14,879 nucleotides of DNA from Candidatus Thorarchaeota archaeon (lineage in GTDB: Archaea > Asgardarchaeota > Thorarchaeia > Thorarchaeales > Thorarchaeaceae). Within the stretch, counting starts at the first letter, position 1; the number at the start of each line of letters is the position of its first letter. Positions 4,186 through 13,046 of this stretch are shown piece by piece. The notes below the pieces were generated by a model. That model was not told the DNA's origin. It saw only the letters and a program-made list of their open reading frames with translations, and did no database searches. The position numbers were made by a program, and so were the translations under genes. The stretch is taken from contig PRDJ01000011.1 in NCBI GenBank assembly GCA_003345555.1, positions 1 to 14,879 of the forward strand, written 5' to 3'.

Positions 4186-4191
4186 GAGGTG
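4186..4191 (+). promoter_or_regulatory. Ribosome-binding site of top6B
   Basis: GAGGTG 6 nt upstream of the TTG at 4198; matches the archaeal SD consensus GGAGGTGA. Confidence 0.7.
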
Positions 4192-4197
4192 GATTGA

Positions 4198-6375
4198 TTG
4201 ACTTCAAAGGAGAAGATTTCCGCAGGAAAGAAAGCCAAGAAGGGCGAAAAGGGCAAGACTGCAAAGACAGCAGGTCCACGGAAAACCGCAAGGAGGACCG
4301 TCGCCACGAAGGCGCCAAAGAAGCCTGTGAAGGAAAAGAAGGTAAGAAAGACCGCCCGCGCAAGACGTGTGAGGAAGTCTGTACCTACAAAGAGTGCACC
4401 AGCGGTCGAAGTCACCACCGAAGAGTCGGGCGAGATCCGACAAGGTACAATTGCAAAGTTCATGCGAAAGCGGACACAGCTTGTCGGCTTCGAGACCGGG
4501 CTCAACAAACACACTCAATATGCGATTGAGTTCCTAGACAATTCAGCTGATGCACTTGAAAGCATGTGGTGGAAACTCGACAGGAAACCAAGACTAAGCG
4601 ACCAACTCGACCCGAAACTGGCGGAGGAAGTCAAGGAGAGATTCAAGGATCAGCTATCGGACACAATCGCGTTTAGCAAGAAAATCGAGAAGGATACTCG
4701 AGATGGAAAGGCTGTTGAGATACCACCAAGACCTAAGGAGAACCTCGAAGCACACCTGACCCGATTCAGGAAATTCCTTGTGCCGTTTAGAAGCTTTATC
4801 ACAAGGCATGAGCCGCTGATAGTAATTCAAGTGACAGAGGTGCTGATGCCCGACCTGGTACCTGTAGACGATGAAGAGGGATTCAAGGTCTACGAGTTCA
4901 TATGTCTTGACACGGGTATTGGCATGGTGCCCGCAGACCTAGAGAAGTTCGGCATCTACCTAGCATCCAGCAAGTCAGAGCATCTCAAACAGACCAGAGG
5001 AAGTCAGGGCTTTGGTGCACCATCTGCCTTTAGTGATGCGCAGAATACGACTGGAAAGCCGATGTTCGTGGTCACAAAGAGATACAATAGCGACAAGTCA
5101 ACAGTCGCGGAGTTCTATACGACCACCGCTAACACGAAGGAGTATGTGAATGGTCCCCTCGAGATGGACCTCCCTTTGGAGCACGGCACATACATCAAAC
5201 TCTACTATCTCAATATCCAGTACAAACGAGGCTACGCAGACATGTATGCTGAGATGGCTTCTTTGCTGGACCCTCATATCACAATTGTGTTCATAGACCC
5301 TTACGGTGAGATACATATGTACCCGCGTCGGGTCAGTGTCTTCCCAGACGAACCGAAGTATGCCCAAGCTCATCCTGCGAGCATAAGAGTAGGGGAGTTC
5401 CAGGATCTGCTTCGTGAGACTACAGAAAAGGACCTTCAAGGATTCCTGACAAGAGGCTTCTGCAGGCTGAGCTCAAACAAAGCCAATGCGATTTTAGAGA
5501 AGACAAACAAGGAACTAAGGATTCGCAAGCTCGATGCGATAAGCGGTCGGACCCCTACCGATTCATTATCGAAGACAGAGACAGAATTCCTGTACAAATC
5601 GTTCTCAAGTGAAGAATACATCGCTCCACCAACTGATACTGTTGTCCCTGTGGGAGAGGAAGTATTCGAGAGGACCATCAAGTCGGCATTCAAGCCGGAA
5701 TTTGCGGCAGCAATCACAAGGAAGCCTTGCTCGGGTAAGGGGTTGTCATTTGCCGTCGAGGCCTGTATAGCTTATGGTGGCGACATAAAACCTGCATCAT
5801 CTGCCAATGCGGTACTCTGGAGATATGTCAACAGGGTTCCGAAGCTTAGAGACAACAGTGACTGTGCCATGTGGAAGGCAACTGCTTCGGTCAATTGGAA
5901 GAACTACAAGCTTGATTCATTTGATAACGGGATACCAAGAGGACCTGTCATGCTCTTCATACACGTGTGCGGCGCGTACGTACATGTTATGTTCAAAGGA
6001 AAGAGCAAGCAGGCTCTCGCCGAAGATGAAGTACTGATCAGAGAAATCAAACTCGCCCTTGAAGATGCAGGGAGGAAATTCAGGTCCTTCATAACAAAAC
6101 GAGATACTGCACAGCGGAAGGCGAAGAGAGCTGGTATTCTGGCCATGTATGCAGACCAGTTCGCTCATAGTCTCGTTACAGTCGCAAACGATGGCAAACG
6201 AAAGAAGCAGTTTGACGCTGAAGTTGTTGCACAGAAGCTGAGGGATGCTATCTCAGGATTCGAACTCGAGGCAGATGAAGAGGAGGTTGGTGTGGATGTT
6301 CTCGGTGAAGAGATACTATCAGATTCCTCTGCCAGCGGAGATGAAGGCTTCTCTTCTGGGGGCAAGGATGAGTAG
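4198..6375 (+). CDS. top6B: DNA topoisomerase VI subunit B (GHKL ATPase) with basic N-tail, GHKL insertion and acidic C-tail
   Basis: 725 aa. N-box IEFLDNSADA (E111, N115), G1 DTGIG (D238), ATP-lid/G2 QTRGSQGFG, HGTYIKL, H2TH region (FCRLSSNKA...LSKTETEFL), YIAPPTDTVVPVGEE, and transducer RYVNRVP and FKGKSKQALA (switch Lys). Confidence 0.93.
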   Translation: MTSKEKISAGKKAKKGEKGKTAKTAGPRKTARRTVATKAPKKPVKEKKVRKTARARRVRKSVPTKSAPAVEVTTEESGEIRQGTIAKFMRKRTQLVGFETGLNKHTQYAIEFLDNSADALESMWWKLDRKPRLSDQLDPKLAEEVKERFKDQLSDTIAFSKKIEKDTRDGKAVEIPPRPKENLEAHLTRFRKFLVPFRSFITRHEPLIVIQVTEVLMPDLVPVDDEEGFKVYEFICLDTGIGMVPADLEKFGIYLASSKSEHLKQTRGSQGFGAPSAFSDAQNTTGKPMFVVTKRYNSDKSTVAEFYTTTANTKEYVNGPLEMDLPLEHGTYIKLYYLNIQYKRGYADMYAEMASLLDPHITIVFIDPYGEIHMYPRRVSVFPDEPKYAQAHPASIRVGEFQDLLRETTEKDLQGFLTRGFCRLSSNKANAILEKTNKELRIRKLDAISGRTPTDSLSKTETEFLYKSFSSEEYIAPPTDTVVPVGEEVFERTIKSAFKPEFAAAITRKPCSGKGLSFAVEACIAYGGDIKPASSANAVLWRYVNRVPKLRDNSDCAMWKATASVNWKNYKLDSFDNGIPRGPVMLFIHVCGAYVHVMFKGKSKQALAEDEVLIREIKLALEDAGRKFRSFITKRDTAQRKAKRAGILAMYADQFAHSLVTVANDGKRKKQFDAEVVAQKLRDAISGFELEADEEEVGVDVLGEEILSDSSASGDEGFSSGGKDE

Positions 6376-8591
6376 TGGTCGGAAACAAGGATGAGGACAG
6401 CCAGCCAGTGCAGACGACATTGGGAGAGCTCATCGAATCAAAGAAATCGGGGATGCAAAAGATGAAGTCAGCCAAGAGCAGCACGCGAGCAAGAAAGCAC
6501 AACAACGCTCGTGCAAACGATAAGAAGAGTACGAAGAAAGGGCAATCTGCGAAAGCGACGAAGAAGCAATCCTCGAAAGTCGCTCCCTCGAAGTCTCCAA
6601 GACCGAAGCATCCTGCCAGCAAGCCCGCAAAGGAGAAGAAAGAAGAGCCCAAACAGAAAACTGGTACCGAACGCACCCCATCAGTTCCCAGCCAAGAAGG
6701 CACCGCCCTGAAGCTCTTGCCAGGAGTGGGAGCCAAGCTCGCACAGAAGCTGGCATCTACCGGTTATGACTCAGTAGAGAGGCTGTCCAAAGCGAGAGCC
6801 GACGCGCTATCACGCAGAATCAAGGGCTTGAACGTTGAGGAAGCAAAGAAAATCATTCGCACTGCCACAGAGTATCTTCGCGGCAGGTCGGTGACAGACG
6901 AGACGTTGTCAGTGGAGGCGGCTACTCCAGTGAGTGGAGCAGCTCTTCTCGCTGCCGAAGACAGTGCTGCAGAGACTGCGACCGCGAAGTCAGATGAAGA
7001 GGGCAGCAAGACTAAGGAATATGACATAAAGCTCACGGAGTTGCCAGGCGTTGGTCCCAAGCTCGCAGAGAGATTCAGGGAAGCGGGCTATGATTCGGTT
7101 GCGCGCGTTTCAAGATCACGTCCCGACGCCCTGGCACGCACTGTTGCTGGTCTCAGCAAGGATCGCGCCAAGTCAATTGTCTCAGCCGCAAAGGAAGCTA
7201 TCACTTCAAGACAGCTTGCGGAATTGGCAGAGGAAGCTTCAAAGACTGCTCCGGAACCGAAAAGGGGAGCCGCAGCGCCCCCAACTAAGAAACGGGGCAA
7301 GGCAAAGACCCAGGAGACAGTCGTCTCCCCGCTCTTACAGAAAGCCAAGGCCAAGAAGCCTATCGAGAAACGTCCCAGACCTGTAATCAAATCATCGGGT
7401 CTTCCCGTACCCGAATCCGTGCTCGAGCTACGCAGGGAACTGAAAGCTCGCTATCGTGCTGCCGAAAAGGCGGAAGCCGCAGCAGGATCTGAGGCTCCAG
7501 CTTTCGCCTCCGGCACCGTCCAAGTCGCCGACCTAACATCCGATGAGACGACTGCCAGATTGGTCGAAGCGGCAATTGAAGTTCTCAATGAGACCATGAC
7601 CACAGGCCGCCCATCATTCGAGATTCCAAGCAGATCGGCAGACAACATTGTCTGGGACGAAATCAAGGATCTACTGCTTCTAGGCATGCGTACTATATCT
7701 CGGCCTTATCATTCTCTTGCATCGGTCTTGGACGCGACAAGAACAGCCCGAGTAATGGAGATTGTCTATCAGCTTCTCCGATCTGGCCTCCATGCAACGA
7801 AAAGAGAGCTCTACTACGCCGATGTCAATCTGTTCAGAGACCAAAGATACAGTGACAAGATTATTGAAGATGTCGCTTCAATGCTGCCTACAACCCGTGA
7901 CAGCATCCATGTCGTGGCTGCCGCAAGAGGCTCGGCCATGGGAAGGATTGTTATCAGAGACGCGGGTGATAGAATTGACCTAACGCAAATGGGAACAGGC
8001 GGTTGGGCCATAACACCCTTCTTGGATCAGGTCGAGATCGTCGAGAGTGATGCAGAGTTCATCCTGCTGTCGGAGAAGGACGCAGCCGTCATGAGACTTG
8101 CGGAAGCCAAATACTGGAATAGGCAACCCTGTATTGTGATTACCGGAAAAGGATCTGGTGACATAGCTACGAGAGCCTTCCTCAAGACAATGGTGAAGGA
8201 ACTTGAGATTCCAGCATTCGCATTGATGGACTCAGACCCATACGGTCACTACATCTACTCTGTGTTTCTAAGAGGCAGCAAGCGCTTGAGCTACGAGTCG
8301 CCATTCATAGCTACGCCGGAACTGAAGCTTCTCGGAGTGCTTAGCAGAGACCTTGATGAATTCAAGATTCCAAAGAGTGTGCGTATTCCAATGATGCCAG
8401 CTGACATCAAACGAGTGAAGGAGATGCTCAAGGAGCCGTTCGTGCAGAAGAATGATCCTTGGGTCGAAGATCTGCAGTTGATGCTGAGGATAAAAGAGAA
8501 GGCGGAAATCCAAGCATTTGCTAGCCACGGGTTCGAATACCTAACAGACGAATACATTCCGAGGAAGCTCGAGACTGGCGATTGGATATAG
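6375..8591 (+). CDS. top6A: DNA topoisomerase VI subunit A (Spo11 family) with a long N-terminal extension bearing two HhH modules
   Basis: 738 aa. The C-terminal ~350 aa have 5Y-CAP TKRELYY (catalytic Tyr481), Toprim LSEKDA (E567), ITGKG, DSDPYG (D619/D621) and the KAEIQAF end motif. The GTG start overlaps the top6B stop (TAGTG); alternative ATG at 6453. Confidence 0.93.
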   Translation: MVGNKDEDSQPVQTTLGELIESKKSGMQKMKSAKSSTRARKHNNARANDKKSTKKGQSAKATKKQSSKVAPSKSPRPKHPASKPAKEKKEEPKQKTGTERTPSVPSQEGTALKLLPGVGAKLAQKLASTGYDSVERLSKARADALSRRIKGLNVEEAKKIIRTATEYLRGRSVTDETLSVEAATPVSGAALLAAEDSAAETATAKSDEEGSKTKEYDIKLTELPGVGPKLAERFREAGYDSVARVSRSRPDALARTVAGLSKDRAKSIVSAAKEAITSRQLAELAEEASKTAPEPKRGAAAPPTKKRGKAKTQETVVSPLLQKAKAKKPIEKRPRPVIKSSGLPVPESVLELRRELKARYRAAEKAEAAAGSEAPAFASGTVQVADLTSDETTARLVEAAIEVLNETMTTGRPSFEIPSRSADNIVWDEIKDLLLLGMRTISRPYHSLASVLDATRTARVMEIVYQLLRSGLHATKRELYYADVNLFRDQRYSDKIIEDVASMLPTTRDSIHVVAAARGSAMGRIVIRDAGDRIDLTQMGTGGWAITPFLDQVEIVESDAEFILLSEKDAAVMRLAEAKYWNRQPCIVITGKGSGDIATRAFLKTMVKELEIPAFALMDSDPYGHYIYSVFLRGSKRLSYESPFIATPELKLLGVLSRDLDEFKIPKSVRIPMMPADIKRVKEMLKEPFVQKNDPWVEDLQLMLRIKEKAEIQAFASHGFEYLTDEYIPRKLETGDWI
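6708..7190 (+). repeat. Two 53-aa intragenic HhH-module repeats (6708-6866 and 7032-7190) in top6A
   Basis: LKLLPGVGAKLAQKLASTGYDSVERLSKARADALSRRIKGLNVEEAKKIIRTA vs LTELPGVGPKLAERFREAGYDSVARVSRSRPDALARTVAGLSKDRAKSIVSAA: 27/53 identical by ungapped manual alignment. Confidence 0.9.
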
Positions 8592-12612: not shown

Positions 12613-12734
12613 TATGGAGGAACATCAACCACATGTATGCAAGTCGCCTAGGGAGATAGCAGGAAAAACCTTTTCTCTACAAATTCCAACTTGCGCTGAC
12701 AGGGAGATGGCAGAAGCTCCTCACGGATGTGCAA

Positions 12735-13046
12735 ATGATGCCTGCAATGCCCAAGCGTGAGATTTTCGAGAGGATCATCCAGAACATTACGTCCAAGTTC
12801 CCGGACGTTTATGCGGCGCTTTTTATCAGCCCTGAGGGTTTTACGATAAATAGCTGGGGACTGACTCCGGAGCGCTGTGAGGAGGTCTCCGCACTTCTGG
12901 GCGCTCTAATCGGAAAAACAAAGGAAGTAATTGGGCAGATGTTCAAGGAAGGGGCATTACAGTTCATTCAGGTTCAGACGTCATTGGGTGGCATTCGTAT
13001 TGCACCTCAAGAGGAATTCATACTTGTGACTCTAACTCACACATAA
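12735..13046 (+). CDS. Roadblock/LC7 (MglB/LAMTOR-like) domain protein
   Basis: About 100 aa with the alpha-beta-beta-alpha-beta-beta-beta pattern: IIQNITSKFPDVYAALFISPEGFTI, EEVSALLGALI, QFIQVQT, IRIAP, FILVTL. Start uncertain (12729, 12735, 12738 or 12747). Confidence 0.85.
   Translation: MMPAMPKREIFERIIQNITSKFPDVYAALFISPEGFTINSWGLTPERCEEVSALLGALIGKTKEVIGQMFKEGALQFIQVQTSLGGIRIAPQEEFILVTLTHT

Follow-up and report, generated by a model that had tools for sequence, protein, structure and literature searches.

A family-wide Thorarchaeial variant of topoisomerase VI with helix-hairpin-helix modules at the N-terminus of its A subunit

Introduction

DNA topoisomerase VI (Topo VI) is described in review as an A2B2 enzyme, structures of archaeal subunits having been solved for the enzymes of S. 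shibatae (2zbk), M. mazei (2q2e) and M. jannaschii (1d3y). The solved A subunits of these canonical enzymes are 369–389 amino acids (aa) in length and are devoid of appendages (1d3y representing a 301-aa fragment), and the solved B subunits are without the 93-aa insertion in the GHKL domain that is described below, the M. mazei protein having a C-terminal domain of its own. Here, the analysis of a top6B–top6A gene pair from Candidatus Thorarchaeota archaeon is presented. The pair resides on contig PRDJ01000011.1 (C11), the entire 14.9 kb of which was analysed and is referred to hereafter as the window, and which forms part of an assembly of 2.28 Mb that is 93% complete. Both encoded subunits have the same core domains as the canonical enzymes, the A subunit being preceded by an N-terminal extension of ∼380 residues.

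A closer relative is the conserved Topo VI of Asgard archaea and eukaryotes, in which the A subunit has an extra N-terminal helix and the B subunit an extra transducer helix and C-terminal region (PMC9665070). The conserved Asgard Top6A has been placed nearest to eukaryotic Top6A and Spo11, with several clades having a second copy, and the same 2025 paper describes a third Top6A copy in Thorarchaeia that is related to those of other archaea (PMC12680538). The pair in the window shares with the conserved type its clade, an upstream and coupled top6B gene, the N-terminal helix, the GHKL insertion and intact motifs, but differs in having ∼345 extra Top6A residues ahead of the helix, comprising a motif that resembles the PCNA-interacting protein (PIP) box, basic linkers and tandem helix-hairpin-helix (HhH) units of the (HhH)2 type.

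Topo V of Methanopyrus kandleri is likewise a topoisomerase equipped with a variable tandem (HhH)2 array, the repeats of which confer DNA anchoring, processivity and salt tolerance. It is, however, a type IC single-strand cutter, with 12 C-terminal repeats that are also associated with repair activity, whereas the Top6A array is N-terminal, numbers 2–7 units, with disordered basic linkers connecting it to a type IIB enzyme. The DNA-binding plant proteins RHL1 and BIN4/MIDGET are added factors that the eukaryotic relative needs, and the likeness to the present pair lies in the core enzyme and in the addition of DNA-binding parts. These plant proteins, which are predicted to dock on the C-terminal and GHKL domains of TOPOVIB (PMC9665070), are nevertheless separate polypeptides unrelated to HhH, whereas the Thorarchaeial additions are fused to the A subunit. 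Finally, archaeal clients of the sliding clamp PCNA (Fen1, the RFC large subunit, polymerases and ligase) present the same terminal Q-x-x-L-x-x-h-h peptide in a disordered basic context; Top6A differs from these in having aliphatic residues at positions 7 and 8, and in that PCNA would here be binding a type II topoisomerase.

Results

Gene organisation and catalytic motifs

The top6B gene (4198–6375; all features of the pair lie on the forward strand) starts with TTG and encodes a protein of 725 aa, and top6A (6375–8591) starts with GTG and encodes a protein of 738 aa. The genes overlap by one base, such that a single G closes the stop codon of top6B (TAG) and opens the start codon of top6A. 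A Shine-Dalgarno-like hexamer, GAGGTG, can be read from the sequence at 4186–4191, 6 nucleotides (nt) 5′ of the TTG, which supports the upstream top6B start that takes in the basic tail of the protein.

The identity of both subunits is evident from profile matches. Top6B matches Pfam Topo-VIb_trans (8.7e-42, residues 477–643) and NCBIfam PRK04184 (1e-100, exceeding the family cut-off of 274), and its best solved relative is M. mazei Top6B (2q2e, 1e-52). Top6A matches TP6A_N (6.9e-20, residues 455–513), TOP6A-Spo11_Toprim (PF21180; 1.8e-52, residues 562–732) and, in two stretches, HHH_5 (3.9e-21), with S. shibatae Top6A (2zbk, 2.7e-56) as its best solved relative.

Conservation of the catalytic motifs was judged among 60–64 homologs and by alignment to solved Topo VI chains. 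The catalytic core of Top6A (residues 379–738 and stop; 7509–8591) contains the 5Y-CAP and Toprim domains. Within the former, RELYY at residues 477–481 aligns with RDLYY of S. shibatae Top6A, with R477 and the tyrosine Y481 (nt 7815–7817) being invariant in 60 sequences. The same is true of the acidic Toprim residues, aligned to 2zbk_A, namely E567 (nt 8073–8075) and the D619-x-D621 pair (nt 8229–8231 and 8235–8237). Alignment of Top6B to 2q2e_B revealed the N box (E111/N115/D118), the G1 box (D238-x-G240-x-G242), the G2 box (266–273), the H2TH domain, the transducer motif WKNY (567–570) and the switch lysine K604, with E111, N115, D118, D238, G240, G242, G268, G273, W567, Y570 and K604 all invariant. 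As judged from these alignments, every catalytic feature that was checked is intact in both subunits; the pair fits Topo VI on its subunit motifs, and strand passage by an A2B2 enzyme is predicted from the coupled genes and intact motifs. The original prediction, made from the window sequence, of a coupled pair with 725- and 738-aa subunits and intact motifs is borne out in each of these respects.

The N-terminal extension of Top6A

The extension begins with a short motif resembling a PIP box (VQTTLGELI, residues 12–20; 6408–6434), which is considered separately below. This is followed by a disordered linker rich in Lys, Ser, Ala and Pro (22–105; 6438–6689; net charge +22; predicted local distance difference test (pLDDT) score <40), a first (HhH)2 module (106–172; 6690–6890), an acidic, Ala-rich disordered linker (173–215; 6891–7019; net charge −7), a second (HhH)2 module (216–281; 7020–7217) and a Lys/Pro-rich disordered linker (282–344; 7218–7406; net charge +10). 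The last of these runs into a K-x-S-G-L-P-V-P motif (339–346; window 7389–7412), which is specific to the extended family and lies just before the Asgard/eukaryote-type N-terminal helix (345–378; 7407–7508). The helix was modelled at residues 347–369 and, in alignments with other Asgard orthologs, coincides with their N-terminal helix region. Pfam HHH_5 recognises both modules (the second at 219–274), and in AlphaFold2 models these have pLDDT scores of 91–96 (module 1) and 93–96 (module 2), compared with values below 50 for the linkers and tails of both subunits. Lengthening of Top6A by basic disordered tracts and two HhH modules, as originally proposed, is therefore upheld by Pfam, by AlphaFold2 and by charge counts.

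The hairpins read LPGVGAKL and IKGLNVEE in module 1, and LPGVGPKL and VAGLSKDR in module 2. On sequence and modelled structure both units are assigned as (HhH)2 domains, for which DNA binding is predicted; modules of this type grip the duplex backbone without sequence preference. Module 2 is the better conserved, and matches the RadA N-terminus in NCBIfam (1.6e-16) as well as RadA/Rad51 and the Topo V HhH repeats among solved structures (5hm5, 2.1e-6). A genome search with Top6A residues 100–290 gave no sign of recent copying of the modules from RadA or another gene, the best other matches being 32–34% identical.

The architecture is common to 120 homologs of 644–953 aa, which derive from many independent contigs and which rule out the fusion being an artefact of assembly. 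NCBI labels these homologs only as 'helix-hairpin-helix domain-containing protein'. The number of HhH units in the family varies from 2 to 7, a 953-aa relative having seven HHH_5 stretches by Pfam. Among homologs, hardly any variation is seen in the HhH glycines or in the KxSGLPVP motif, which, together with the invariant Gln, Thr and Leu of the N-terminal motif, indicates that the extension is under selection.

Orthology and distribution

A second Topo VI pair is present in the same genome, on contig C10 (44798–47357; L003:6799–9358), as the original prediction had suggested should be looked for. This pair is catalytically intact and of normal length (Top6B, 507 aa; Top6A, 355 aa), and is conserved at 67–90% identity across Thorarchaeota. 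In order to assign the copies, 40 Top6A loci were gathered from across the phylum (28 genomes) and every adjacent gene was scored against both pairs. Where a family has a single Topo VI, as most Asgard families do, this scored 300–600 bits against the window proteins and 110–150 bits against the C10 proteins, and Top6B bit scores split the copies in the same way as the Top6A tree.

That tree, a maximum-likelihood analysis of 76 Top6A cores with support given solely by the Shimodaira–Hasegawa-like approximate likelihood-ratio test (SH-aLRT), was built from Asgard sequences and cluster representatives as the outside set, with eukaryotic Top6A/Spo11 and named non-Asgard archaea left out. The window Top6A falls in a clade with SH-aLRT support of 99, along with rows from 16 Asgard family codes, and for most Asgard families the sole Top6A lies in this clade. 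The C10 copy and a third Thorarchaeial copy fall outside this conserved clade, the former being situated among other archaeal representatives, with Marsarchaeota, Jordarchaeia and Hermodarchaeota as its named relatives. By sequence, then, it is the extended pair that is orthologous to the conserved Asgard Topo VI, and this pair is not the odd one out. The third pair is very divergent (Top6B-like, 505–597 aa; Top6A-like, ∼387 aa, with a Toprim match of only ∼1e-23, and a tree branch of 2.9); it occurs at L008:2919–5577, L011:2698–5644 and L015 (reverse strand; genomes G005, G075 and G236), and was not found in the source genome or its genus.

Within the family of the source genome (f1), 58 of the 61 genomes have the extended type, and those lacking it are 52, 60 and 74% complete. 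The normal-length type is present in 53 of the 61, and was not found in one single-contig genome and in three that are at least 90% complete, and the third type is present in ∼39. Extended-type Top6A reading frames that are not cut by contig ends measure 658–954 aa. Two apparently short forms proved to be artefacts, that of G242 (505 aa) being broken by a run of 100 N and that of G218 (617 aa) ending with its contig. Indeed, many extended top6A orthologs are broken at contig ends or N runs inside the low-complexity and HhH-repeat region, as a result of which gene callers would often report a truncated, 'normal-length' Top6A for this family. In the sister family, f2, the ortholog is 420 aa long and has no HhH module, indicating that the extension, which was seen only in f1, arose at about the base of that family. 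A lineage-specific variant with added modules of DNA-binding type had been anticipated, and this distribution agrees with it.

The Q-x-T-L motif and predicted docking to PCNA

A Q-x-T-L sequence occurs within the first 45 residues of 115 of the 120 homologs, the other five beginning inside the linker. Its Gln, Thr and Leu are invariant across 56 aligned Top6A N-termini (Q13, T15 and L16 in the window protein), the consensus being [TI]-[VI]-Q-[AEST]-T-L-G-[ED]-[LV]-[VIL]-[ED], preceded by a Lys-rich stretch. The motif is in the register of a PIP box, with Gln at position 1, Leu at position 4 and positions 7 and 8 hydrophobic, both being so in 88 of the 115. Q13 and L16 fit the strict consensus, Q-x-x-[LIM]-x-x-[FYW]-[FYW], but L19 and I20, which occupy positions 7 and 8, are aliphatic, the homologs having L/V and V/I/L at these positions. 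On sequence the motif is thus non-canonical and PIP-like as opposed to a consensus PIP box.

Complex prediction was conducted with the PCNA of the genome (contig C50, 250 aa; alignment of 30) and Top6A residues 1–45 (alignment of 56). The interaction score from aligned errors (ipSAE) was 0.80 (0.77, 0.80 and 0.80 in individual runs), compared with 0.00 for all three controls, with at least 76% contact agreement between runs and partner pLDDT of at least 49. Of 80 solved complexes 58 attained the ipSAE mark used, as did 2 of 110 mismatched pairs, a calibration that is only rough for the present model because custom alignments were supplied to it. Predicted contacts involve Top6A residues 10–17 and 19–20 and PCNA residues 40, 43–47, 123–128, 226, 242 and 244–249, which we take to be the classical PIP pocket, interdomain connector loop and C-terminal tail. 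The model therefore supports docking of the motif in the PIP pocket of PCNA.

The two Fen1 proteins of the genome end in QRSLTDYY and QATLEQWT, the latter being Fen1-2. Possession of two Fen1 proteins with different PIP boxes reportedly matches a Fen1-1/Fen1-2 split in Asgard archaea. The genes are on contigs C10 and C37, with ∼5.6 kb separating that on C10 from the second Topo VI pair, which lies downstream.

Tails and insertion of Top6B

Top6B begins with a disordered tail rich in Lys, Arg, Ala and Thr (residues 1–76; 4198–4425; net charge +21; pLDDT <50), followed by the N-strap and N box (77–122; 4426–4563), which align with residues 14–55 of M. mazei Top6B. A GHKL insertion of 93 aa (123–215; 4564–4842) then separates the N and G1 boxes, and corresponds to a gap at M. 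mazei positions 55–58. It was modelled as a three-helix subdomain, with helices at 139–149, 156–168 and 183–202 (pLDDT 85–94). The remainder of the GHKL domain, the H2TH domain (∼396–470), the transducer and extra C-terminal helices occupy residues 216–688 (4843–6261), the helices at 652–663 and 674–685 being modelled beyond the long transducer helix. Asgard-type helices are hence present in both modelled subunits, as set against published descriptions and not residue by residue (PMC9665070). The protein ends in an acidic disordered tail (689–725; 6262–6372; net charge −13), which shares a core of approximately G-x-D-L-V-A-D-x-P-L with family orthologs; the tail may act as a further docking peptide or mimic DNA.

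The basic tail, insertion and acidic tail that had been read from the sequence are all present. The description of both subunits as heavily extended holds for Top6A but overstates the case for Top6B, for which the insertion and long C-terminal region are normal for the Asgard type, and for which the genus of the window is unusual only in how long the basic tail is. The insertion is present in all aligned Asgard-type Top6B proteins and absent from the second-type pair, and Asgard-type Top6B proteins are long in general (617–1154 aa). Thorarchaeota homologs are 633–760 aa in length (68–85% identity), and mostly 633–706 aa, those of the window genus reaching 725–760 aa on account of the longer basic tail. 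This tail is ∼20–35 aa in other genera of the family, and is long in families f2 and f4, where basic N-terminal tails recur without conservation of length or sequence.

Other additions to Asgard Topo VI

Topo VI subunits in other Asgard families have decorations of their own, comprising ubiquitin-like domains, HhH modules on the C-terminus of Top6B and long Lys/Pro-rich Top6B tails. The conserved Top6A is ∼465–470 aa in families f16, f22, f5 and f14, and the one example checked (L028:562–1953, reverse strand, 463 aa) has an N-terminal ubiquitin-like domain (Pfam Rad60-SLD, 5.4e-7; ubiquitin, 2.8e-6), with L038, L041 and L043 having similar N-termini; no mention of such a domain on Top6A was found in the literature searched. 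A Top6B of family f27 (L026:979–4323, forward strand, 1114 aa) has several HhH modules (HHH_5, 4.6e-27) on a lysine-rich C-terminal tail, and is an independent fusion of this module type to the other subunit. Top6B proteins of ∼1000–1150 aa in families f9 and f24 (L031:1034–4447, forward strand; L032, L034 and L042) have a very long Lys/Pro-rich C-terminal tail, at the end of which is a conserved domain of ∼60 residues (…W.TIKHLIFKL…DARYLQ.KL…L…GK..WKL) with no Pfam match that may be a winged-helix-like DNA-binding end.

Genomic context and transcription

The neighbouring genes are ordinary chromosomal genes, encoding a major facilitator superfamily transporter, zinc-ribbon proteins, F420 gamma-glutamyl ligase, a Roadblock/LC7 protein and ABC transporter parts, and no signs of mobile elements were apparent among the genes around top6B and top6A in the window. 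The Roadblock/LC7 domain protein (12729–13046; Pfam 2e-8) belongs to a family often listed among the Asgard eukaryotic signature proteins, and its gene is flanked by reading frames of 543 and 207 aa without a Pfam match.

Near-identical DNA is present in wetland metagenomes of two studies. Metatranscriptome-library contigs from two wetland studies cover parts of top6B (4215–4365, within the basic tail, 4373–4523, 4764–4944 and 5928–6122) and of top6A (7026–7193, within HhH module 2, and 7322–7622). Since such libraries can contain DNA, these contigs provide weak support for transcription of the extension-coding parts of both genes, and the uncovered stretches are uninformative.

Discussion

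The extended pair is a real, family-wide variant of a known enzyme. It represents the conserved Asgard Topo VI in Thorarchaeia and probably acts as a replisome-tethered, DNA-anchored housekeeping decatenase, and its most likely role is that of the housekeeping decatenase and relaxase of the lineage. A more specific proposal, namely that it is a clamp-riding type II topoisomerase in which a PCNA-interacting peptide and an (HhH)2 array of variable size are borne on a long basic tether, is advanced tentatively, with slightly less in its favour than against it. Genes, domains, motifs, orthology and distribution are matters of observation, from which we infer DNA anchoring, coupling to the replisome and roles for the tails.

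Mechanistically, the enzyme would act as an ATP-dependent A2B2 type IIB topoisomerase, passing one duplex through a transient break in another. The terminal Q-x-T-L-x-x-[LV]-[VIL] peptide would hook it to PCNA, and hence to replication forks, or recruit it to clamps remaining on replicated DNA, while the basic linkers and HhH modules (two here, and up to seven in relatives) would hold it on DNA. The charge of the Top6B basic tail may add to the attraction, and the acidic tail may serve to mask basic parts when off DNA. A weakly DNA-binding, crossing-sensing enzyme could in this manner be kept near newly replicated DNA, with an increase in local concentration or processivity, giving a decatenase that travels with, or is recruited by, the replisome and that holds sister duplexes.

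Several points weigh against this reading. The whole functional case is built on sequence and structural models. The residues at PIP positions 7 and 8 are aliphatic as opposed to aromatic, and one or both are non-hydrophobic in 27 of the 115 homologs, including the genus with seven HhH units (QSTLLEHD). Many PIP–PCNA complexes have been solved, and the ipSAE value, in addition to being only roughly calibrated, may mirror learned likeness and not real binding. The invariant Thr is not a requirement of PIP boxes, and a different partner could have selected the motif. Thorarchaeial genomes have two or three Topo VI pairs, and a normal-length pair could carry out bulk decatenation. Finally, the 'eukaryote-like' description of the conserved type derives from the papers cited, the tree presented here having no eukaryotic sequences.

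Two of these points lead to alternatives that are unlikely and yet deserve to be taken seriously. In the first, the Q-x-T-L sequence would bind a protein that is not PCNA (Top6B, a chromatin protein or a segregation factor, for instance), the PCNA model being a look-alike. That the invariant residues are Q, T and L is in keeping with this, as are the aliphatic nature of positions 7 and 8 and their loss in 11 of the 115 homologs, and pairs that resemble solved complexes can pass the complex score by virtue of likeness. Nevertheless, the register, terminal position, disordered context and basic flank all suit a PIP peptide, Fen1-2 of the same genome ends with the comparable QATLEQWT, and the three controls all scored zero; a non-PCNA partner is accordingly considered the poorer explanation, albeit one with some substance. 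The second concerns division of labour, in which the C10 pair would be the general decatenase and the extended pair a specialist, for instance a fork-coupled or chromatin-bound relaxase. Both pairs are intact and conserved across the family, so that selection appears to maintain each of them, what the extended pair has gained suggests a particular location, and possession of multiple copies of Top6A/B has been argued to be advantageous (PMC12680538). However, the extended type is never missing from near-complete genomes and is orthologous to the only Topo VI of most Asgard lineages, whereas several good genomes of this family yielded no normal-length type. It is doubtful, then, that the extended pair is the specialist, but the idea retains about the same modest standing as that of a non-PCNA partner.

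The remaining explanations are far less probable. The original prediction had raised the prospect of a specialised paralog acting as a targeted, Spo11-like break-making complex instead of a strand-passage topoisomerase. Homology to Spo11 (PDB 8urq, 1.2e-5), the likeness of the HhH modules to the N-terminus of RadA/Rad51 and the paralogous pair in the genome could be cited in its favour. Against this, Top6B retains the N strap, the N, G1 and G2 boxes, the H2TH domain, the transducer with WKxY and the switch lysine, and gives no indication of a Spo11-like, break-only enzyme, whereas the TopoVIB-like eukaryotic partners of Spo11 are without H2TH and often without ATP-binding motifs (PMC9665070). 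Moreover, the extended pair is a conserved ortholog within the well-supported Asgard clade and is present in every reasonably complete genome of the family, it being the normal-length pair that is missing from several; the break-making proposal is consequently regarded as very improbable. Least credible of all is that the extensions are untranslated, with the true starts far downstream, or are chimeras of assembly. Both genes have non-ATG starts (TTG and GTG), the low-complexity region often breaks assemblies and many orthologs end at contig ends, but the terminal motif, HhH modules and linkers are in frame in more than 100 independent homologs, many of them ATG-started. The GAGGTG hexamer ahead of the top6B TTG and, weakly, the RNA-library contigs over 4215–4365 and 7026–7193 also speak against it.

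If the clamp-riding proposal is correct, then this would be, to our knowledge and in the literature searched, the first known case of a clamp hook built into a type II topoisomerase. No report of an HhH array, PIP box or clamp-binding motif on Topo VI was found in that literature, which covered PMC12411855 and PMC12680538 exclusive of their supplements. The window had initially been thought to contain an undescribed system. That view can be sustained only in part: multiple Top6A/B pairs and the Asgard-type helices have been published (PMC12680538, PMC9665070), but the family-specific Top6A N-terminus, with its HhH and PIP-like elements, was not met with in the literature searched and is apparently new. 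Mixing of Top6A/B copies has been reported to mislead trees (PMC12411855), and clarifying which of the two or three Thorarchaeial pairs is the conserved copy is therefore relevant to the use of Top6A/B as phylogenetic markers.

More broadly, the Thorarchaeial pair would be an instance of a wider Asgard habit of adding accessory modules to Topo VI, and the finding bears on whether a type II topoisomerase can be wired straight to the sliding clamp. Among prokaryotic enzymes, Asgard Topo VI is the one most closely related to plant Topo VI and to the meiotic Spo11 complex, and a module-adding habit of this kind would foreshadow the accessory subunits of the eukaryotic Topo VI and Spo11 machinery. 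It bears, in turn, on how the eukaryotic enzymes came to need extra DNA-binding or recruiting partners, in that an enzyme of ancestral type would already be gaining them by fusion.

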